Shown here piece after piece: positions 40,967 to 55,359 of a DNA stretch of 64,000 nucleotides (its first letter is position 1; each line of letters opens with the position of its first letter). The stretch is taken from positions 1,391 through 65,390 of IMG/VR virus record IMGVR_UViG_3300031998_000076, one strand, 5' to 3'. The notes beneath the pieces are model-generated. The model saw only the letters and a list, made by a program, of their open reading frames with translations. It did not search any database and was not told the origin of the DNA. This DNA is from a virus (lineage: Duplodnaviria; Caudoviricetes). The position numbers and the translations under genes were made by a program.

Positions 40967-41938
40967 TTAGATGCCGTCCACGTAATAAACGGTGGTCGGA
41001 TAGTTGAACTCGACCTCAGACACCTGGGCAACATAGGGAACCTTGAAGGCGAGATCCGCCATCTCGGTGTTGAGCCGGCGTAGAGGAGCGGTCTGATGAT
41101 ACCGGATCTTTTCGACCTGATTGATGTACACAACCATGCGGTCCGCGGAATCCGTGCCAGCATGATAGCAATACTTGCAGGGGAAGATCTCCAGATTCTT
41201 GCCCTGCTGGGCAACAATGTTATTCTCCTTGATGTAAGTCAGGATGGACTTATCACCGGTCGTGCCGACCTTGCGGGTAACGAGCTGACCGAACTGATAC
41301 ACAGGAATCAGGATCTGATTCGGCAGCGCATCATCCGCCATGTCATTGGCAACCCACACAGCAGTCAGGGCATTGTTGAAATCAGCCAGGATCTCATCCG
41401 GGGTCTTGTAATCCCACTGGGTGTCAGAACCACCGGAAGTATGAGCGGCGGCGGCCACACGGGTAACACTCGCGTTGTTCAGCAGACCGGTGGAGGCCAC
41501 CTTGGTGAAGCCCAGATAAACGTTCGTGTCACAGAACCTATCGAACTCCAGGTGGACGCCCTTATTCAGAGTTTCTTCCATGTTCAGGGCAATGTTGCGG
41601 AACTTTTCCTTTTCAATGTAGGACAGCCGCGTATACTGAGCCCAGTTGAAAACACGGGAGATGGTCTTGCCGAAATCGGCCTGCATGACAGGAATATCAT
41701 TGGCCGTGTTGAAGATCAGCGAATTTTCACCGTTGCCGGTGGAAGCATACTGCACATCCACAACGGACACATTCTCGATGAATCCGCCGCCGGTCTTCAC
41801 AGGCATATCACGGGGCCACAGAGTAGAAGTCAGCGGCTCCAGGATCTTAGGATCGCACTTCTCGAGCTGTTTCTCGAGGAAGGCGTAAGCATCATTTACC
41901 ATGCTGTCATTCGCACGGAGACGAGGGAATTTCTTCAT
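40967..41938 (-). CDS. Major capsid protein (DUF2184/HK97 fold)
   Basis: AFLEKQLEKCDP.I.EPL, GLLNN, TPDEILADFN, LPNQILIP, VSEVEFNYP.TVYYVDGI. Confidence 0.9.
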   Translation of the reverse strand: MKKFPRLRANDSMVNDAYAFLEKQLEKCDPKILEPLTSTLWPRDMPVKTGGGFIENVSVVDVQYASTGNGENSLIFNTANDIPVMQADFGKTISRVFNWAQYTRLSYIEKEKFRNIALNMEETLNKGVHLEFDRFCDTNVYLGFTKVASTGLLNNASVTRVAAAAHTSGGSDTQWDYKTPDEILADFNNALTAVWVANDMADDALPNQILIPVYQFGQLVTRKVGTTGDKSILTYIKENNIVAQQGKNLEIFPCKYCYHAGTDSADRMVVYINQVEKIRYHQTAPLRRLNTEMADLAFKVPYVAQVSEVEFNYPTTVYYVDGI

Positions 41939-42440: not shown

Positions 42441-43730
42441 TTATTTATTCTTGTACTGAGGATTGCGCTTGGCCATGATCGCCTTGCCGATATCGGCAGG
42501 ATCATTCTTGCTGTCAGCAGCCTTATGCGGCTTCTTCAGCGCGATGTAGCCATTCTTGCGCGGCCGGGCATCCAGCCCGGAAACCTTTCGAATCTGCTCG
42601 ACAGCCTTGTCAGAGGCCTTCTTGCGCATGGAGGGAGGAAGCTGGGCGATAATAGGTTTCACAACCTTCAGGGCAGCCCTGGCGGCATCACAAGCCCTCT
42701 TGTCCTTCGCGGGACCGCAGTCCTCTTCCATCGGGAAGTCTTCCTCTTCCTCTTCGATCACTTCATCTTCATCCTGCTCATTGATCTGTTCAGGATCAAC
42801 AAAGTGCGCTTCCGGTTCCTGAGGATCTTCATCGGGAGCAATGATCTCTTCCTGTTCTTCCTCAGCTTCCGGCTGCTGTCCGCCGATCTCATCCAGATCC
42901 TGCTCGAGTTTCTCCAGAGGATCAATCTCGGGCTCTTCATCAGCGGCACCCAGCTTCGCCTCAATCGCGTCGAGCCGATCCAGGATCTTCTGAATCATAG
43001 GATCTTCATCCTTGGTTTCTTCAGGAGCCGGAACAGGCGTTTCCACTTCTTCGGTGGTGATGTCTTCAATGGCATCAACAGCCTCTTCCAGCTCTTCGGG
43101 GTCCGCGTCAACGGCCCACTTGGCCAGCATTTTGGCAAGAATCTTACTATGGTTCTTCTTCGCCATTTTCTGATTTCTCCTTTCATTGATTGCAGGGGCA
43201 GAGTCCTTTATACAAACCCGGTGACCAGCACGCCCTTTGTCCACAATGGCGATGTGATTACCGCGGATTTGCCGTTGAGTAAGTTTCCCGTCTTCTTCAT
43301 CCAGGACATAGTTGTAACCGCATGAAATCTCACGCTTTCCGTCCATGATTTCCTGGATTGTCTGAGGATCTGTGATCAGCAGATCAGCAATCAGAAGATC
43401 TTTGTCTTTGCCTGTGCCTCTCCGCACGTTCTGACAATGACCTTTCTGCAAAAAACTGATATTGTCTGCCGTGACACCTTCCTCTGAATCGGGATGATCA
43501 TTGGTAACAGGCATCCCTTCAAACGATGCCATAGTTGCCGGAGAGAACACTTCTTCTTCAGGACGGAACACCGTGACAGTTTTTTCACCTCTCTGTCCGA
43601 TTTCATCCTGGAGATACTGCTGAGTGCCGGATCTCGCAATCGGCACATTGACACAGATCAGATAACCCTCCGGTTCTCTCTTGCGGATGTTATCCGAGAT
43701 CTTGTCTGCATAGTAGAGCACCTTCATCAC
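42441..43730 (-). CDS. DUF2213 prohead protease/scaffold
   Basis: EGYLICVNVPIARSGTQQY, FSPATMASFEGMPVTNDHP, GKREISCGY, IRGNHIAIVDKGRAG; acidic scaffold C-terminus. Confidence 0.9.
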   Translation of the reverse strand: MMKVLYYADKISDNIRKREPEGYLICVNVPIARSGTQQYLQDEIGQRGEKTVTVFRPEEEVFSPATMASFEGMPVTNDHPDSEEGVTADNISFLQKGHCQNVRRGTGKDKDLLIADLLITDPQTIQEIMDGKREISCGYNYVLDEEDGKLTQRQIRGNHIAIVDKGRAGHRVCIKDSAPAINERRNQKMAKKNHSKILAKMLAKWAVDADPEELEEAVDAIEDITTEEVETPVPAPEETKDEDPMIQKILDRLDAIEAKLGAADEEPEIDPLEKLEQDLDEIGGQQPEAEEEQEEIIAPDEDPQEPEAHFVDPEQINEQDEDEVIEEEEEDFPMEEDCGPAKDKRACDAARAALKVVKPIIAQLPPSMRKKASDKAVEQIRKVSGLDARPRKNGYIALKKPHKAADSKNDPADIGKAIMAKRNPQYKNK

Positions 43731-46875: not shown

Positions 46876-48900
46876 CTATCGTTGCTTTGCAGGTAACAAA
46901 ATATTATCGTAGTATTCTTTGTTTGGCAACGCATTATCTACGCGCATGATTGTAGGATTCCAGGAGTAATCATTGTCGGTGTTCAGCTTGCAATCCGCAA
47001 GATACTCTGCAATCTTCTCGATGCCAAGCTGTTTTTCCCCGTTCTGAGGATCAACAAGCATCAGATGACCATTTTCTCTTTCAAGACAAACGATATGAGC
47101 GCCTCCGCGTTTCCAGCAAACTGACATCGTGAACCTCTGCCCATCCTGAACCTGTTTGTCAAGCCATTTTGCGACATTGTTCTTGTTCCATTTTTTGCCC
47201 GTTTCCGGCCGGATCTTCTCAGGAGGTTCACCAGTCTCAGGATCAATCCACGCACTCGCTCCTGTTCTGTGAGTCGCCGCCAGTTCATACTGCCATGCTT
47301 CTGCATCTCCTTTACGAGGCTTTGCAATGACGTCATAACCTCTCCTGCGCAGCTCATACGCGACAACGCAGGTTTGGCAATTCCCTCTTTGCTCTTTAAC
47401 GTGCTTTGCCCTGTCAGGATTCGCACTGGAATTATCTGCCGAATAAAGATCCATTTCATCCCCCTTCTTTACTCCGGCAACAGTATCTGGAGAATACATC
47501 TTTTTGATCTCTTCCGGTGAATGCTTTGACTTCCACACAGAGGACTTGGCATTCCTTTCTGCTTCTTTCTTGGCTTTTTCTGCCGCTTCCGCCTGTGCTT
47601 TTTTCTCTGCTTCAGCTTTTTTCTTGGCCTCTACTTCATCCTCGGAAACAGGTTCGGCGCCGGTGAGCATTTTATCCTGGAGAAGAATGTAATCCTGGAT
47701 CATTCTGCGCTCTTCCTTTTTCCGGGGAGTGAACTCCTTCATTTTACGTTCGACCTTTTGGAAGTCGTCAAACGTAAGATCGTCAACATTATCTTTTAAA
47801 TCGATCGTGAATGAATCTCTGCTAATATAAGCATTTACAACTTCCAGAAGCCTTTTCTTTTCATCATCCGTCAATCTGTCGAAATTTTCCGGCCCATACT
47901 TATAATTCAGATGCGCCCAGCTTGAAGCCGGATCTCTCGGAGCCAACTGCCCGCGGATTCTTTTGATTGCCTGGATTCCATAATAATTCGCTTCAGTAGG
48001 AGAGACAATCTCATGTTTCATTTTATCGACAAACCGCTGATTGAGCTCTCCGAAACTTTCAGGAGTCATTCTCTCCGAATAAGGAGCAACCTCACCGATT
48101 GCCGTTTTCATGTAATAACTTGCCTGACCAACATCAGGATTATTTGCAACCCAACTGTAATCAGGGCCTTGAGGCTTTGTCACAGGACGTTCCTTTACAC
48201 CGGCAGCATAAAGCACTTCATCCGGGATCTCTTCGCCGGACGTGGGAACATCCATTGCTTTCGCATACAGATCAAAGAAAACATCTGTTTCGGTTCCTTC
48301 AAGATCTTCGTAATTGTTCCACAGATAATCGAAAACCTTTCTTTCATCCTCGGAAAGATTTTCCTTCATCAACCTGTCTTTGTTGTCATCCCATTTTCTT
48401 GCCTCAGAAACATAACCCAGCAGTTGATTCTTGTCTTCATTTGATCCGGTTTTCATGACGTACTCTTCTGCGGACATTCCTTCCCGGATCTTGTCGAGAT
48501 TGCCGTTTTTGAGCGCTTCCTCTTTTTCGCTTTCTGTTATAAGCCCTTGCTTCCAGCGCTTTTCAATAAGTTCCTTTGCTCTCAGCTGATGCTTAAGTCT
48601 TTCGCCGTGACTTTTCAGAACTCTTGTTGCCCCGGCCTGCTTTTCTCCGTTAAGGCCGTTCAACCAGTCTTTCCGAGATCCGAAATATCCAATGTCTGCT
48701 CTGCCTCCACGATACTGCTTTCCGCCGCCAGGACCGGAACCACCCACCTTGCCAGGACGTCCTTTGTGTCCGAAGTTCCCCGATCCGGGACCACCATCCG
48801 TCGCGAACTCAGAAGCAAATTCAGGAGGCAGGACGCCGATATACTGCCCAATATCGGTATAAACCTCTACTTCTCCTTTTGGATTGATACTCGTCAGCAT
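46876..48900 (-). CDS. GGPGSGN-tagged effector with C-terminal papain-fold (Tox-PL-like) peptidase
   Basis: Tag at 48736-48798; GNCQTCVVAYELRRRGYDVIAKP (Cys), GAHIV (His), LVDPQNG (Asp). Confidence 0.82.
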   Translation of the reverse strand: MLTSINPKGEVEVYTDIGQYIGVLPPEFASEFATDGGPGSGNFGHKGRPGKVGGSGPGGGKQYRGGRADIGYFGSRKDWLNGLNGEKQAGATRVLKSHGERLKHQLRAKELIEKRWKQGLITESEKEEALKNGNLDKIREGMSAEEYVMKTGSNEDKNQLLGYVSEARKWDDNKDRLMKENLSEDERKVFDYLWNNYEDLEGTETDVFFDLYAKAMDVPTSGEEIPDEVLYAAGVKERPVTKPQGPDYSWVANNPDVGQASYYMKTAIGEVAPYSERMTPESFGELNQRFVDKMKHEIVSPTEANYYGIQAIKRIRGQLAPRDPASSWAHLNYKYGPENFDRLTDDEKKRLLEVVNAYISRDSFTIDLKDNVDDLTFDDFQKVERKMKEFTPRKKEERRMIQDYILLQDKMLTGAEPVSEDEVEAKKKAEAEKKAQAEAAEKAKKEAERNAKSSVWKSKHSPEEIKKMYSPDTVAGVKKGDEMDLYSADNSSANPDRAKHVKEQRGNCQTCVVAYELRRRGYDVIAKPRKGDAEAWQYELAATHRTGASAWIDPETGEPPEKIRPETGKKWNKNNVAKWLDKQVQDGQRFTMSVCWKRGGAHIVCLERENGHLMLVDPQNGEKQLGIEKIAEYLADCKLNTDNDYSWNPTIMRVDNALPNKEYYDNILLPAKQR

Positions 48901-48921
48901 CTCAACACCTCCCAAACAAAA

Positions 48922-48973: not shown

Positions 48974-49204
48974 TTAATAAATCATATCCTTGCTCAGTTT
49001 ATAATTGAGCAGTTCCTGCCAGGTGACGCCCTTTTTCAAGCATTCCTTGTATACCTCTTCAGAAGACTTATATGGCCCGAAATCCGCCCCCGGCCATTTG
49101 GATGACATAAGACTCCACTTGCCATGAAGCATGGCATAAATCGCAGCCTGCGGCTGCGTTCTGGCCAGTTCTTCATCAAGCGGATAAGTTTCTACTTCAC
49201 TCAT
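48974..49204 (-). CDS. Small protein, candidate immunity for the HExxH effector
   Basis: ATGAGTGA overlap with the toxin stop; EVYKECLKKGVTWQELL. Confidence 0.65.
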   Translation of the reverse strand: MSEVETYPLDEELARTQPQAAIYAMLHGKWSLMSSKWPGADFGPYKSSEEVYKECLKKGVTWQELLNYKLSKDMIY

Positions 49205-51227
49205 TGTCTCCGCACCTCCAAGCCTTCGTCATGACACTTGCGATATTCGGAATGCACTTGCTCATGAAATCAATCTCAACACTGTCATTTCTGACACGTG
49301 CGGAGAAAATATTCGCCGCCGTTTCTATCGGCCACCTTTTTTGCTCATAATAATCTATGGAATGAGCACCCCATAAAGCAGCAAGCATAAAAGCCCCTTG
49401 GACAGCATCATCAATACAGTCCGTTATACCGCCCAGCATTTCTTTTTTGCGCTGATACTCATCATAAAGCGCCTGTTTCTGCCGGAGAAGTTCTGCATAC
49501 TTTTCCTCTCCAATGGACTCTTCCCATGCGTCGAATTTCTGACGATACTCTATCATAGCTTCATGATATTTTTCATCATAACCTTTCTTCTTCGGGACAG
49601 TTTTCACGGTCTTCCTTTTCGGAGTTGTGTATGTTTTGTAATAATCCGTGAATTTTGGTTCGACCGGCTGCCCGTGATCGTACATGAAGTTTTCCCATTC
49701 TCCATATCCGATCAAATTCCTCAACGCTTTATCCACGGCCTCAGAAATGAAGAACATATCAGGATCTGATACTCCATCAATCCACTTCCCGTCTTCTCTT
49801 CTCCTGATGCCAACGTGCTGTCCATGCTCTACATATTGAGCAGCATACTTGTCTCCCATACCAGCAAGTTCAAGCAATCCTTGTATGTCTTCCTGGGCGG
49901 CCTTCTTATATTCATCCCCATAAACAGCAATTGCGGTAGCGCCATCTTTGGTATCTGCAATCGACACCAACGGCTCCGCAATCATTTTTACCCCGGATTT
50001 CGATATCCAATTATCGCAAAAATGTCCATACTCATGCCAGAACGTTCTTGCTACATCTTCCGCAGACCTTGGGATTCCATTATGTCCAGAATCCCCATAG
50101 AACATATTGATTCTCTGATGATCAAAATTGCACGTCCCCGTTGTTGGACTCCAGATAATCTCTGCTCTTTCCAATGTTCTGTCCACAAGTTGCGCCATCC
50201 GATCATCCATGGTGTCCACACTTGCGATAATCTTTTCCCTGTAATTCCTCAAATACGGTCCTTCTTCATCACTATTGGAATAAGGAATACCATTGATACG
50301 TTTAAAACAATTCGCAGATTTCTGAAGTTTTTCTTTCACAGACTTCCTTGCCATGTCTCCTGCTTTTGTATGGACATATCCTCCATCCTGAGCCCTGAAC
50401 ACATCCCTGAGTCTTCCGTGTTTTTCAAGATATTTAATCCCGTCCGGTCTTTCAGGAATCACAACATCTTCCACGCCCAATGCTTTGGCCTTGAGCGCTG
50501 AATAATACTGATTTGTAGAGTAAGAAGCATTCCGAATAAACTCTTCATTCGGGATTTTTGAATACTTCGGCCCATCACCCCAGGGGAATGAATCCAGGAT
50601 CATGTTCAGATCTTTTCTTTCATCATCCGTAAGATTCTCGAAGTTTCTGTCAAGAATCGTTTCTGACCATCCGAGTTTTTTGCCGAGATTGTCAACAATT
50701 TGATCGGCCTTCTGACTGTACCATTTTTGCCCAAACACCTGTCCGAAAGAATCTACTTTCTGAAGAAACTGATCCACCATATCCTGATCCTCTTCTGAAA
50801 GAGCATCATACCATCCTTTCATTTTCTTCTCAGGATGATCATGGTTAAGCATTGTGAATATCCTTTTTTGATATTCATACAATGATTCCTCAGTTCCTGT
50901 TTCGGCGTGCTGATCTTCAAGCGCACTATACTGTTCCTCTGTCAGAGAATCCAGGAATTTACTTATATTCTTCGCTTCTCTTGCGGCCTCCATGATTCCT
51001 TTAAATTCCTTGTGCCTTGCGAAAGACTTATATCCTTCTTCCTTCGACCCGGATCTGAACGCTTTCCCACCGGAACCCTTGCCGGAACCCCCGACTTTCC
51101 CGGGTCTGCCCCGATGTCCCCAGTTCCCCGATCCTTTTCCGCCGTCAATCCCCAGCAACCGGAGCGTGAACCGGACAAGATCCTCTTTGGGCCCGTTGTA
51201 TGATGCCACAATCTTTCCTTTGCTCAT
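49197..51227 (-). CDS. Tagged effector with zincin-like HExxH metallopeptidase
   Basis: Tag DGGKGSGNWGHRGRPGKVGGS at 51084-51146; TFWHEYGHFCD; later ETAANIFSA third-ligand-type motif. Confidence 0.78.
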   Translation of the reverse strand: MSKGKIVASYNGPKEDLVRFTLRLLGIDGGKGSGNWGHRGRPGKVGGSGKGSGGKAFRSGSKEEGYKSFARHKEFKGIMEAAREAKNISKFLDSLTEEQYSALEDQHAETGTEESLYEYQKRIFTMLNHDHPEKKMKGWYDALSEEDQDMVDQFLQKVDSFGQVFGQKWYSQKADQIVDNLGKKLGWSETILDRNFENLTDDERKDLNMILDSFPWGDGPKYSKIPNEEFIRNASYSTNQYYSALKAKALGVEDVVIPERPDGIKYLEKHGRLRDVFRAQDGGYVHTKAGDMARKSVKEKLQKSANCFKRINGIPYSNSDEEGPYLRNYREKIIASVDTMDDRMAQLVDRTLERAEIIWSPTTGTCNFDHQRINMFYGDSGHNGIPRSAEDVARTFWHEYGHFCDNWISKSGVKMIAEPLVSIADTKDGATAIAVYGDEYKKAAQEDIQGLLELAGMGDKYAAQYVEHGQHVGIRRREDGKWIDGVSDPDMFFISEAVDKALRNLIGYGEWENFMYDHGQPVEPKFTDYYKTYTTPKRKTVKTVPKKKGYDEKYHEAMIEYRQKFDAWEESIGEEKYAELLRQKQALYDEYQRKKEMLGGITDCIDDAVQGAFMLAALWGAHSIDYYEQKRWPIETAANIFSARVRNDSVEIDFMSKCIPNIASVMTKAWRCGDNE

Positions 51228-51249
51228 CCGGTTCACCTCCAAAAAATAA

Positions 51250-51279
51250 TTGTAAAAACTTGACATACTATGATATAAT
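51250..51279 (+). promoter_or_regulatory. Plus-strand extended -10 promoter
   Basis: TTGTAA, 18 bp, TG-A-TATAAT, with an A-rich upstream element. Confidence 0.65.
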
Positions 51280-51281
51280 GA

Positions 51282-51440
51282 TTTTGCAAGAGGACATTCG
51301 TCCCGCAGGAACCAGCACTTCTTTGGCCACCATACCCAGGGCGCGGCTGGGGATGAGTAAGTTGGTTCTGAACCTCATGCAAGCCACCAGCCACGGTTCT
51401 GCCTGAGGACTTGCAAAAATGCTTCGCATCAGCGAGGCAT
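51282..51440 (+). ncRNA. Candidate structured small RNA convergent with the ART/CdiA gene
   Basis: Promoter upstream; TTTTGCAAG/CTTGCAAAA closing stem; internal stems GGAC/GTCC, CCCAG/CTGGG, ATGAG/CTCAT; terminator downstream; no ORF with a good RBS. Confidence 0.5.
51419..51440. terminator. Bidirectional intrinsic terminator
   Basis: ATGCTTCGC-ATCA-GCGAGGCAT with T-runs on both strands. Confidence 0.75.
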
Positions 51441-51444
51441 TTTC

Positions 51445-53268
51445 TTATTCAAACCTAAGGACTTTATACTTGTCACCTTTGTACAAAATAATCACATCCG
51501 CAGCGAAATCCGCACTTGTGTACATTCTGTTCCTGACAGCAATTTCAGCATCTTCAAGTGATGCTCCGCACTTATTAAGATCCATTATTATCCCACCAGG
51601 ATTTCTTCGGATTTGTTTTATTCCTGTTCTCGGTCTATCGTTTAAAGCACTATATGATTTGCTGTCAGGCGTTTTAAGATCCCACAATCTTCCATTCCAC
51701 AAATAATCTGGATTGCTAACCCTTTTGTTCTTATGGATTTCCTCAAGAACTCTTATATCCCCACCAAACTCAGAATGCAACCACTTTGCGATTTTTATGT
51801 CATCAACCCGATTTAAAACATCTACGCCAGGATCGATCTCAAACTTTCCTTCTCCCGGCCTTGCATTCTCTTTATACTCATTCGTTATGTCACGATATGA
51901 AGTAACATTCGCCGCCCTTTTCCCATGCAACCTTATTGGTTTGGATCTATTCTCTCTTTTTCTTGGAATTACCCTATGCTCAGGATTGTTTCCTTCTTCA
52001 TGTGGTCTGTATTGTTTTGTAGATCCGCCTTTTCCAGATCCACCAACGCTCCCCGGCCTTCCTTTATGCCCGAAATTTCCAGAACCAGGCCCTCCGTCAT
52101 TCACAGATGTCTCAAGAGGATCAATGCGGAAATACTTCTGCTGCGCCTGCATCCTGTCAGGAAGAGATTCATACTTTTTGTCCGGCACAGAATCGAACTG
52201 CTTCCGTCTGAGGTCTCTTTCTTCCTTGCTCATTCTATGCTCAGATTCTACAACAGTAATGATCGTTCTGTTGGTCCCCTCCTGGACATTCATAACAGTC
52301 CATTGAGCTCTGCTGTGCGCCAGCACTTCATCCTCTCCATGAGTAGACAAATGACTTACCGGAGCCGCAGTTCTGTTTTTAATGCACCTGAATACGATGT
52401 GTCTGCTATCCTCACTCGAACCTGAGAAATGATATGCCATCTCTTTATCTGACGTCCAGGAAGAGTTCATTCCTATCATCTTCACGGTACCACCAGGTTG
52501 GGCATTTTTCATGAACTCTTCGTAATCATCCTGGTCGAGCTCAATCCCGCGATAGATTTCTCCATCATACACACCATCATCATCGATGTATTTGTCGAGC
52601 GTCTCTGTGTCCGCTCTTCCCCAACTCCCGCTGAACCATGTCCCCATTTCATCCAGGATGTGCCATGCCTCCTTTTCATCGCATCCCGTCCAATCCTGGA
52701 TATAAGCAAGCCTCGCAGTAGTAAAAGGATCTGTAAGTCCATTATTGGAGGATTCCCATTTCTTTTTGTACATGACTTCATCATTGATGTCAGGAGCTTT
52801 CCTTGCTTCCTTTGTGGGAGTAGGATCTCCGTTTTTCTCCATGATGTCAAAATACTGCTTCGCAAGCTCTCCGGCAGTTCCTTCTCTCCATGCCTTTACA
52901 GCATCTTCATATTCAAGGAAACCCTCCTCAAGCAGGAAATAAGACTGATCCTTTGGACTTTGACTCATGACTTCTTCTCGTTTCTGAGCGAGTTTTTCAT
53001 GATACTCAGATCTTCCAGCCCCTTCTGTTGAACCGGAACTTTGCTTTGCAGATCCTCCGCGTTTCCCAGGTCGACCAGCATGACCAAAGTTCCCGCTTCC
53101 TGGTCCTCCGTCACTTATCATCCGAACCAGATTGTCAAGATCATCATCAGAGAAACCTTTGGATTCCTCTGAAATAAAGTCTCCCATGGTGAACACCTTG
53201 CCAGCATAAACACCTTCATTTGTAAACTGCTCCAGGATGCCTGTCCCCGTGTTTCTGCTGTACTTCAT
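51445..53268 (-). CDS. Doubly tagged effector: R-S-E ADP-ribosyltransferase plus CdiA-type C-terminal nuclease
   Basis: Tags at 53050-53112 and 52036-52098; IYRG / SSWTS / EDEVL; NPDYLWNGRLWDLKTP...KQ...IIMDL PD-(D/E)xK pattern. Confidence 0.8.
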   Translation of the reverse strand: MKYSRNTGTGILEQFTNEGVYAGKVFTMGDFISEESKGFSDDDLDNLVRMISDGGPGSGNFGHAGRPGKRGGSAKQSSGSTEGAGRSEYHEKLAQKREEVMSQSPKDQSYFLLEEGFLEYEDAVKAWREGTAGELAKQYFDIMEKNGDPTPTKEARKAPDINDEVMYKKKWESSNNGLTDPFTTARLAYIQDWTGCDEKEAWHILDEMGTWFSGSWGRADTETLDKYIDDDGVYDGEIYRGIELDQDDYEEFMKNAQPGGTVKMIGMNSSWTSDKEMAYHFSGSSEDSRHIVFRCIKNRTAAPVSHLSTHGEDEVLAHSRAQWTVMNVQEGTNRTIITVVESEHRMSKEERDLRRKQFDSVPDKKYESLPDRMQAQQKYFRIDPLETSVNDGGPGSGNFGHKGRPGSVGGSGKGGSTKQYRPHEEGNNPEHRVIPRKRENRSKPIRLHGKRAANVTSYRDITNEYKENARPGEGKFEIDPGVDVLNRVDDIKIAKWLHSEFGGDIRVLEEIHKNKRVSNPDYLWNGRLWDLKTPDSKSYSALNDRPRTGIKQIRRNPGGIIMDLNKCGASLEDAEIAVRNRMYTSADFAADVIILYKGDKYKVLRFE

Positions 53269-53280
53269 GCGCCCACCTCC

Positions 53281-55359
53281 TTACTGTTCAACTCTGACCT
53301 TCTGTTCGCTCAGGATTACTTTTGTCCGATTCAGGACAACAGTATAAGATCCGCTTTCTCCATGACCTTCTGCATTTATGGCGTCATACCCCAGCATTGC
53401 GGCGCAAACCCCTTCATCCATCGGCATCGGCTGCCTTGGATGATGAGTCCATTCCGAAAAAGAAAACATCATTTCGATATGTTTCCGATTTTCTCTGAAC
53501 CAATCTTCCTGTTCCTGAGTCGCTTTCCCGTTGTACTTCATCCGGTTGATCCTGGCGTTCCCTGCAATGACACCGGCATTTCCGAGGCCAGCAGCGCCCT
53601 CTCCTTTTTCACTTGGAGATTCTGAAATGCCATAGTAATAAGCCTTCGCATAAGCCTCGACAAGATCCTTATCGATATAATCCGGGCACTCGAGCCTTGA
53701 AACAGCCTCTTCTACGAACGCTTCCTCTGACATATCGCAAGTGTTGTACCCTGATGTGATTTTGTGCCGGAGATCTCTTAACTCCTGATACGTGATGATC
53801 TTCGCGCTCGGATCAAGCGTCATAACCCTGGTTGAAGCCTGAGGATCTATTTTTTTTCTTTCACACTCGCCCTCAATCTCTGCCCAGCTTTTGTCCGACA
53901 TATCTATGGCGCTCAAATAGAAGTAACTCCTACCATCAGGAGATAGCAGCAATCCATCTTTTGCGACAGTATAGATTTTTGCCTCACCAGGAACGTAATC
54001 ATACATCACGGCAATCGTCATGCCCTCTTTGGGAACATCATCGAACCTTTTCTTTGTGTTCTTATCGAAATACATGAACACATTGTTTCCAGTCGGACTG
54101 TACCCGGTCGCAATGCTTTTTCCTTCCGGCGCGACCCCCGGATTCTCATCCTCGATTCTTCTTATGGAATAACGCCTGTAATGCTCCATCTCGGATAACG
54201 CTCCGCGGATTCCAGCCTCACGTTCTTTGCTGTTTGCATCCGCGTATATCCCAAGATCCTGTTCCTTGCACTCATAAACATCAAGCGCATTCCCGACCAT
54301 CTGATCCGCATCATCATCGCTGATCAAAGCTCCGGTATTCATATCTGTCCAAAGATACGAATCCTCATCCATTCGGATCATCATTCTCGACCCGTCTTTG
54401 TTTACGATTAAATAAGGAATGCCGGAATACATATCACCAGTATCATCGGGCTGGATCTTGTCTTTTGTAACAAATCCATTCCCCTTTGAATCTGTGAAAA
54501 CACACATTCCGGCAGAACCCATCTCGTGCATCATCCTGAAATCAGAATCAAGACTCGGGTCATCCCATTTGTAAAGCGGTTCCTGCTGATAAACACCAGC
54601 GCAATACATTCCCTGTCCATACTGCGCTCCTCCGGTTCCGCAGTCGACATACCATTCGCCAGATTCCAGCATTTCATCATAATCGGCCAGCTTTTCAGGA
54701 GTTTCCGCCGCATAAGATCTGTACAGAATCGGCATCTCAGGATGCTCTTTGATTATCCTGTCGAACTCTTCCTGTGAAACAACCTTCGGCACACCATTGA
54801 ATCCCTGTTTCGCAATTACATCCTCAATCGTGGTGTCAATAACCTGTCCGAACTCAGGATCTACATAAGGCTCGATATCTTTTCTCCAGGTGTCATACGT
54901 CCTGGATATATCCTTTCCCTGGACAACCTTATTTTCTTTCCTGTCTTTAACAGGTTCTGCCTGCATCACAGCAAGCATTCGCCTGGCATACATTGAAAGC
55001 GACTCTTCTGTACCGGAATCCTTCCATTGCTTTTGCAGCGCATCCTTCTGCATTTTGTCCATCGACTTTATGAAACTTCCATAATCTTTGGACTTCTGCG
55101 CAAGTCTGTGGATCTGCTGGAACGTCTTTGTTTCAGGAATGTCTGATTTCCCGGTTTCTTCGATTTCTTCTCCGGAAGATCCGCCTTCGCCAGACCCGCC
55201 GACCTTTCCCGGTCTGCCTTTGTGTCCGAAATTGCCGGAACCAGGGCCTCCGTCATTGACTTCCTCATCCAGCCCCAGGATTCTCCTGGCAAACAAATAG
55301 GTTTCATGAGCGCTGTGATCCTTGCCGAACTCTCTGACGAGCATTGACTTGACTCCCAT
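53281..55359 (-). CDS. Tagged effector with PARP-like ART fold split by a large insertion
   Basis: Tag at 55192-55254; QGFNGVPKVV, LYRSY, GAQYGQGMYCA near aa 200-250; AAMLGYDAI...YTVVLNRTKV at the C-terminus. Confidence 0.65.
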   Translation of the reverse strand: MGVKSMLVREFGKDHSAHETYLFARRILGLDEEVNDGGPGSGNFGHKGRPGKVGGSGEGGSSGEEIEETGKSDIPETKTFQQIHRLAQKSKDYGSFIKSMDKMQKDALQKQWKDSGTEESLSMYARRMLAVMQAEPVKDRKENKVVQGKDISRTYDTWRKDIEPYVDPEFGQVIDTTIEDVIAKQGFNGVPKVVSQEEFDRIIKEHPEMPILYRSYAAETPEKLADYDEMLESGEWYVDCGTGGAQYGQGMYCAGVYQQEPLYKWDDPSLDSDFRMMHEMGSAGMCVFTDSKGNGFVTKDKIQPDDTGDMYSGIPYLIVNKDGSRMMIRMDEDSYLWTDMNTGALISDDDADQMVGNALDVYECKEQDLGIYADANSKEREAGIRGALSEMEHYRRYSIRRIEDENPGVAPEGKSIATGYSPTGNNVFMYFDKNTKKRFDDVPKEGMTIAVMYDYVPGEAKIYTVAKDGLLLSPDGRSYFYLSAIDMSDKSWAEIEGECERKKIDPQASTRVMTLDPSAKIITYQELRDLRHKITSGYNTCDMSEEAFVEEAVSRLECPDYIDKDLVEAYAKAYYYGISESPSEKGEGAAGLGNAGVIAGNARINRMKYNGKATQEQEDWFRENRKHIEMMFSFSEWTHHPRQPMPMDEGVCAAMLGYDAINAEGHGESGSYTVVLNRTKVILSEQKVRVEQ

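Follow-up and report, generated by a model that had tools for sequence, protein, structure and literature searches.

The gene at positions 51445-53268, on the minus strand, of a 64,000-nucleotide stretch of phage DNA (hereafter the window; bases 1391-65390 of IMG/VR record IMGVR_UViG_3300031998_000076, a single viral contig of 65,390 bp) raises the question of why one reading frame encodes two unrelated enzyme domains, each preceded by a copy of the same 21-residue peptide, here called the tag or header. The source is an uncultivated tailed phage of about 65 kb, and the record is 73% complete. Structural models of the two halves, comparison with relatives and the distribution of prohead proteases among tag-bearing phages make it probable, on balance, that the product is a small polyvalent protein of the phage type, or capsid-cargo precursor, that would be cut by the prohead protease into two separately headed enzymes. 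The ATG of the gene is preceded, at six bases, by a strong ribosome-binding site, TAAGGAGGTG, and the layout is as follows (ART, ADP-ribosyltransferase; pLDDT, predicted local distance difference test).

51445..53268, minus strand: whole target gene, 607 amino acids plus stop, ATG start; leader, tag, ART, tag, nuclease (open reading frame list)
53113..53268, minus strand: N-terminal leader, residues 1-52; homologous leaders lie upstream of tag 1 in the retrieved protein P0005 and in the window gene 46876-48915
53050..53112, minus strand: tag 1, residues 53-73, DGGPGSGNFGHAGRPGKRGGS; predicted cut D53/G54 (tag from a six-frame motif scan, cut suggested by comparison)
52099..53049, minus strand: ART module, residues 74-390, with a helical N-terminal part, an R-S-ExE catalytic core and a conserved C-terminal tail (AlphaFold2, Foldseek, alignment)
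52036..52098, minus strand: tag 2, the internal one, residues 391-411, DGGPGSGNFGHKGRPGSVGGS; predicted cut D391/G392; homology breakpoint (six-frame scan, BLAST)
51904..52035, minus strand: basic linker, residues 412-455, predicted to be disordered (model pLDDT 50-60)
51448..51903, minus strand: C-terminal PD-(D/E)xK nuclease domain, residues 456-607 (pLDDT >95, Foldseek and VIA)
51410..51444, minus strand: terminator-like hairpin and U-run, abutting the stop codon (folding energy)

The AlphaFold2 model of the ART half, built from an alignment of 27 sequences, has a pLDDT of 89.7 and a predicted template modelling score (pTM) of 0.88. A Foldseek search of the PDB started with this model identifies Vis, HopU1, C3 exoenzymes, Tre1, ART2.2 and VIP2 with the probability of 1.0, the best match being Vis (4y1w, E = 5.5e-9); the matches from the viral library are fusions of the ART with "minor capsid" (MuF) or portal proteins, mycobacteriophage VIP2-like proteins and T4-type Alt. 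The first-pass annotation of this DNA had recognized an ART by the strings IYRG, SSWTS and EDEVL. These are located at residues 238-241, 269-273 and 312-316, respectively, and R240, S270, E312 and E314 (in S269-S270 and E312-D-E314) are invariant in alignment A1 (27 sequences), which, together with the fold, bears out that assignment. By fold and catalytic motifs, this half is predicted to be a mono-ADP-ribosyltransferase of the R-S-E clade, the activity likewise being a prediction. The likeness to the known members of the clade (Vis, HopU1, C3, Tre1, VIP2) extends to the ART fold, the arginine, the serine-rich strand and the ExE loop, whereas sequence identity is just 13-18%, and the large helical N-terminal domain and the conserved C-terminal tail are the phage family's own.

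The model of the C-terminal half has pLDDT >95 over residues 45-196 of that half. Its top fold match is 4g6v_A, the C-terminal toxin domain of CdiA (CdiA-CT) from B. pseudomallei 1026b, both by Foldseek (E = 3.5e-6) and by the Foldseek-independent aligner VIA (Z = 10.9, against 6.9 for the next match; root-mean-square deviation 3.1 Å over 120 of 132 residues). The lower VIA matches, with Z between 5 and 7, are other PD-(D/E)xK nucleases, namely 5j4a, 4zqu, 4g6u, Can2, SfsA, NucS and FokI. The 4G6V toxin is a Mg-dependent tRNase with its cleavage site in the acceptor stem of tRNA-Ala (PMC9086364). Alignment A2, of 28 relatives, shows conservation of an acidic residue at position 490, of P520-D521 and D530-L-K532 (the pattern PD..(D/E)LK) and of Q552, and one homologue, P0005, carries a precomputed PF18451 label. 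The target and CdiA-CT(II) of 1026b have in common the PD-(D/E)xK fold, the C-terminal position within a modular toxin and the set of an acidic residue, Asp and Asp/Glu-x-Lys, the latter compared by motif (E187, D214, D223 and K242 in 4G6V). However, the identity is only 18%, and the target lacks CdiA, CdiB and CdiI and is located in a phage head operon; because of this different context, it is not regarded as a CdiA protein. The resemblance to CdiA C-terminal tRNases claimed in the first-pass annotation is nevertheless borne out by both aligners, and the half is predicted to be a PD-(D/E)xK nuclease with a fold nearest to that of a tRNA-cleaving CdiA-CT.

Each half also exists on its own. Among the retrieved proteins, P0013 consists of leader, tag and ART alone, and P0134 of leader, tag and nuclease alone, so that the search for homologues with the halves in separate genes, which had been proposed as a check, has an affirmative outcome. 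Other combinations are made from the same parts. P0005 starts with a leader of the target type and a tag; a different segment follows, and then a second, mildly variant tag and a nuclease of the target type (66-70% identity to that of the target by three measures). In P0003, the ART and a tag are followed by the body of the window gene 49197-51266; in P0008, by that of 53281-55359; and in P0007, P0012, P0123-P0126 and P0129, by that of 46876-48915. P0128 is a portal protein (59% identical to the window portal) followed by a tag and the ART. In 11 relatives, the BLAST alignment to the target ends at residue 405, i.e., within tag 2. The ART occurs without the nuclease in 106 of the 247 retrieved proteins and the nuclease without the ART in 48; the nuclease domain is always last, and the two are combined only in the window protein. 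The earlier idea that two cassettes were fused in frame and kept the tag between them fits the separate tagged halves, the other fusions and the breakpoints in the tag, and the target gene is best read as two tagged cassettes, each a gene of its own in related phages, that were joined in frame. Degeneration of the internal tag in relatives, named beforehand as an outcome that would refute the two-effector reading of the first-pass annotation, is mostly not seen: internal tags are intact in close ART relatives, and the tag that precedes the nuclease module is mildly variant (R to N or I). An internal start for the nuclease half was considered and ruled out, given that Met373 has no Shine-Dalgarno sequence and is also conserved in ART-only proteins.

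A six-frame scan of the window detects six tags with the motif DGG.GSGN.GH.GRPG..GGS (centered on GH.GR.G) in five consecutive genes, of which the target alone has two. These tags are identical at 17-21 of 21 residues, and yet only 3-10 of about 19 codons for the same residue are identical between them, with 57-79% nucleotide identity (63% between tags 1 and 2 of the target). Because the codons are scrambled despite the near identity of the peptides, the tag is taken to be maintained by selection at the peptide level, and its recurrence is not a matter of chance. The same scrambling rules out gene conversion or recent duplication as the cause of the tag identity. A tag search of 5.8 billion proteins yields 474 matches, and a HMMER scan of 1.84 billion cluster representatives yields 2167 matches at E <= 0.001. 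Many of the matching proteins, which are up to 2,700 amino acids long and contain 2-9 copies, have in common nothing except the tag; the partner domains include portal, MuF, NUDIX, ART, Zeta, GNAT and 2H. A degenerate DNA pattern finds at least 113 stretches in IMG/VR, a less biased sample than the protein searches, and 36 of the 161 tagged reading frames among the IMG/VR matches listed have more than one tag. Within the tag, N, the aromatic residue, H, R and S are near-invariant. The statement of the first-pass annotation that this gene alone has two tags is correct inside the window; elsewhere, 2-9 tags per protein are common. Its view that the two-tag gene is the best internal evidence of a functional tag gives way to stronger evidence, namely the scrambled codons and the conservation over thousands of phages. 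The 21-residue header is seemingly undescribed: no paper that mentions variants of the tag string was found in open-access text, the only text searched. Two candidate roles were set aside. For AT-hook-like DNA binding by GRPG, many lineages have Glu directly after GRPG, and MuF as a universal reader of the tag is rejected given a single weak match in five large tag-bearing records.

At least three other short motifs (NP.HD..GRFT, EHPRD..GRFT and W(R/V)T..G.H..I...G) are located ahead of these same ART and nuclease domains in other phages (P0006, P0009, P0146, P0147, P0161, P0165, P0174), and P0165 looks like a hybrid between header motifs (DGGEGSGNPNHDPENGRFTSG). The headers that precede these domains may be one diverged family.

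The target gene belongs to a minus-strand head operon that consists of genes for the terminase, portal and MuF, five genes encoding 607-832 amino acids, the DUF2213 protease-scaffold gene, a small gene and the gene for the major capsid protein; the target is thus placed between the portal/MuF and protease/capsid genes. The members of this operon that bear on the proposed cleavage and on the comparisons below are these.

56466-58562, minus strand: portal (PF06381)
55372..56226, minus strand: MuF-like head morphogenesis gene, separate from the target protein (Pfam PF04233, E = 2e-16)
42441..43730, minus strand: DUF2213 prohead protease-scaffold gene (Pfam PF09979, E = 6e-49; head maturation protease in PHROG)
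40967..41938, minus strand: major capsid protein (Pfam PF09950), with a predicted propeptide boundary at MVND16/A17

The evidence for cleavage comes from the residues that immediately precede the tag. These 3-4 residues are lineage-specific and, among the matches listed, uniform within a genome in 42 of the 52 loci with at least two tags. Five types can be distinguished.

L/A type: hydrophobic-R/K-x-(L/A) ahead of the tag
Glu type: (I/L)-x-E ahead of the tag
Lys type: (V/I)-x-K ahead of the tag
Asn type: x-x-N ahead of the tag
Asp type, which includes the present phage: x-x-D ahead of the tag

The residue before the tag, which would be the P1 residue of a cut, tracks the family of the prohead protease. 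Peptidase_S77 (T4 gp21-type) is found above the Pfam cut-off in all five Glu-type records of at least 50 kb and in none of four non-Glu controls. In one Glu-type genome, six tags are preceded by ILE, ILE, LFE, LFE, LFE and FFE, and the gp21 family cleaves after Glu in a short motif, the site of gp21 itself being LIE (PMC9026906, PMC5694885). Conversely, a DUF2213 protease is detected strongly (108-168 bits) in 5/5 Asp-type records tested vs 1/5 others, where the match is weak (33.8 bits); homologues of the window portal are also found almost only in Asp-type loci. Of the capsid proteins of Asp-type phages, 10/10 have a variable N-terminal extension of 10-45 residues that ends in an invariant Asp, followed by A/G and then by a conserved F..(K/R)(E/Q)L helix (MVND/AYAFLEKQLE in the window), and the last residue of the conserved protease domain in 16/16 DUF2213 proteins is an invariant Asp, with S/G after it (CIKD/SAP in the window). 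Cutting at D53/G54 and D391/G392 would agree with both lines of evidence, the correspondence between residue and protease and the boundaries. The earlier proposal of a cut at the internal D therefore gains support at the level of comparison (the protease family tracks P1, and Asp is found at the capsid and protease boundaries) and not beyond it. A search of the literature found no report of Asp specificity of DUF2213 prohead proteases.

Two related observations concern other phages. L141 (G018:C1:4195-7347) is an L-type phage whose protease is distantly DUF2213-like. Its capsid protein contains MRAL/Q and FRAL/A at the N-terminus, and MRML/S follows the protease domain; the capsid and protease boundaries both fit the K/R-x-L rule that holds ahead of the tags in that lineage. 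In L041, an Asp-type phage, the DUF2213 protease-scaffold protein is itself tagged (RKD/GGIGSGNFFHSGRPGEQGGS), a few residues past the conserved D/S boundary.

If the protein is cut at the tags, the cutter could be other than the prohead protease, either the tag itself through self-cleavage or a zincin peptidase that is co-packaged and acts after ejection, such as the product of gene 49197-51266, which is encoded next door and contains an HExxH motif. The near invariance of N, H, R and S in the tag would be compatible with self-cleavage, and the N-x-G-H of the tag recalls the NPTH autocleavage site of FlhB/YscU. For the peptidase, Iyer et al. have suggested that polyvalent proteins are processed by metallopeptidase domains embedded in them (PMC5512222). 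However, many of the tag-bearing proteins listed show no peptidase domain, and neither variant would predict that P1 tracks the prohead protease family or that (I/L)-x-E matches the specificity of gp21. Cleavage by such other means is considered very unlikely.

Several points weigh against a precursor cut by the prohead protease into two enzymes. Packaging, ejection, cleavage and both enzyme activities are all things that we infer. Common descent could account for part of the link between P1 and protease family, given that records within a class may be related; six small Glu-type fragments are uninformative for S77 and not scorable; and the S78 protease is found in only one of five Lys-type records, these records being incomplete. 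On the side of the nuclease, the fold group of the PD-(D/E)xK CdiA-CT holds DNases and tRNases alike (PMC9086364), and the substrate, DNA or tRNA, is unreadable from the fold. The match to Pfam CdiA_C (PF18451), although real, has a score of 24.6 bits, under the gathering cut-off of 26.6, and nothing ties the gene to a CdiA system, so that the CdiA label of the first-pass annotation stands as a fold resemblance and falls as a link to CdiA secretion. Furthermore, a 20-residue motif conserved over phages with unrelated proteases is far in excess of what a cleavage site needs. Because the motif is oversized in this sense and common to such phages, the header probably has a role other than cleavage; as the N-terminus of each mature module after the proposed cut, it could have the capsid interior, DNA or the ejection path as a partner.

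The last point bears directly on an alternative in which the protein is packaged and ejected uncut, as one bifunctional chain of 607 residues, with the tags serving as flexible joints or as packaging or ejection signals. Some polyvalent proteins are indeed packaged unprocessed, e.g., the N4 virion RNA polymerase (PMC5512222); the header is kept with or without MuF, as well as over unrelated proteases, which argues for a role beyond protease recognition; and both tags of the target are in segments that are either uncovered by the models or predicted to be disordered. However, an uncut chain leaves unexplained the lineage-specific, protease-matched 3-4 residues ahead of the tag and the common Asp rule at the capsid and protease boundaries, and the free swapping of fused and split cassettes among relatives is easiest if the mature products are equal. 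This alternative is judged to be unlikely, albeit worth keeping in mind.

Under the preferred reading, that of a precursor cut at both tags, the protein would be made late from the head operon and taken into the procapsid, where the DUF2213 prohead protease would cut after Asp53 and Asp391, as suggested by the comparative evidence. With these cuts, a leader of 53 residues would be lost and two mature proteins set free, both starting with GGPGSGNFGH.GRPG..GGS: an R-S-ExE mono-ADP-ribosyltransferase of about 338 amino acids and a PD-(D/E)xK nuclease of about 216 amino acids that is nearest to a tRNA-cleaving CdiA-CT toxin. At infection, both enzymes would be ejected along with the DNA and would act on the newly infected host, in the manner of T4 Alt. 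Such ejection into a new host would account for the lack of an immunity gene, which would not be needed. The hairpin that immediately follows the stop codon of the target has a folding free energy of -14.7 kcal/mol (z = -3.48) and is followed by U5; the gap of about 217 nucleotides between the target and the probable start of the next gene contains no immunity open reading frame, only two 53-residue frames, one of which starts within the hairpin. The first-pass annotation was thus right that no immunity frame is located downstream of the gene.

The lack of an immunity gene is also relevant to the possibility that the two domains are antibacterial polymorphic toxins that lysogens direct against competitors, as proposed for MuF toxins, rather than effectors for the take-over of the phage's own host. 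Temperate phages have been described as encoding MuF polymorphic toxins (PMC5576092), orf2 of Faecalibacterium phage Aster combines MuF with the nuclease domain and has no tag, two related records are classed as proviruses, and neighbouring cassettes contain Zeta-toxin and glutamine-deamidase domains (Pfam). However, in addition to the missing immunity gene downstream, the target protein has no MuF domain and no integrase or resolvase was detected in the record at its 73% completeness. This possibility appears quite improbable; in any case, it is a matter of biological role and does not conflict with processing at the tags.

Among known phage systems, the closest in architecture are the polyvalent proteins (Iyer, Burroughs, Anand, de Souza and Aravind 2017, PMC5512222). 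These combine several unrelated effector domains in one chain, as the target does, are encoded amid virion and late genes, exchange ART, kinase, peptidase and nuclease domains between phages and have been proposed to be processed into units. By having at least two unrelated effector domains in one chain and a location among virion/late genes, the target is a polyvalent protein, its presence in the virion being a prediction. Taken alone, it is an ordinary small member of this class, with two domains only. The paper credits embedded zincin peptidases with the processing, whereas here each junction is the same 21-residue header, with an edge that fits the protease family; a junction or linker peptide is not mentioned in the searched text of the polyvalent-protein paper or in that of the MuF paper.

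In its mode of action, the target would most resemble T4 Alt and those internal proteins that carry a capsid targeting sequence. These are head-packaged, ejected enzymes, including an ADP-ribosyltransferase, from which the prohead protease removes an N-terminal propeptide by cutting at a short motif with a fixed P1. The leader (residues 1-52) is a predicted propeptide and possibly the part that targets the protein to the capsid, the T4 capsid targeting sequence (PMC9026906) being the model for this assignment. In contrast to the present case, the T4 propeptide is 10-20 residues long and no conserved header follows the cut (PMC9026906, PMC5694885), and the T4 protease is S77 with Glu, as opposed to a DUF2213 protease with predicted Asp specificity and an internal site in addition to the N-terminal one. 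MuF polymorphic toxins (Jamet et al. 2017, PMC5576092) are likewise encoded in the head module, beside the portal, and have variable C-terminal toxin domains. However, MuF is a separate gene here (55372-56226), the target has no match to MuF and no downstream immunity gene, and its delivery would rely on the leader and tag instead of a MuF domain; because that domain is absent from the target protein, the target is not considered a MuF toxin.

More generally, there is perhaps an even chance that the header serves thousands of tailed phages as a portable label for cargo, with a front edge rewritten in each lineage to suit its own prohead protease, such that strings of tagged modules are loaded as one chain and cut inside the head, after Asp in the case of DUF2213. 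If so, a parsing rule would follow, whereby the large, mostly unannotated proteins in the head modules of uncultivated phages could be divided at their tags and the pieces treated as individual ejected enzymes; Asp would be the cleavage specificity of the DUF2213 prohead proteases as a family; and the short header with a cleavage site could serve to bring foreign proteins into phage heads, a use to which the T4 targeting sequence has already been put.

Other database searches added little to this picture. NCBIfam has no matches for the target gene, its neighbours or the protease; Rfam shows nothing credible over the effector array, including the gap downstream of the target; a PDB sequence search leaves the target unmatched; and neither a megablast search of GenBank phages with 20 kb nor a tblastn search with a neighbouring gene yields a match, the latter probably because of low-complexity masking.

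Several features of the surrounding genes deserve mention. The portal protein has a C-terminal extension (residues 552-565, window 56868-56909) with a partial tag, GAED/GGPGSGPPPG, and the portal tail may also be cut after Asp. The gene 49197-51266 probably starts at Met14, with the ATG at 51227 rather than at 51266 (window 51227-51266), given that GGAGGTGAACCGG precedes this ATG and that the homologue P0003 starts with MSKGKIV. Its product has an HEYGH motif at residues 411-415 (window 50022-50036) and no match in Pfam, PHROGs or NCBIfam; by this motif, the tagged neighbour is a candidate zincin-like metallopeptidase, the type of domain that Iyer et al. propose as a processor of polyvalent proteins. 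Downstream of it, a 76-residue open reading frame at 48974-49204 (minus strand), for which NCBIfam is blank, is a candidate immunity or partner protein. Finally, the gap downstream of the target contains a promoter-like site on the opposite strand (51250-51279, plus strand), TTGTAA-18-TATAAT, with an extended -10 element (TG before the second hexamer).

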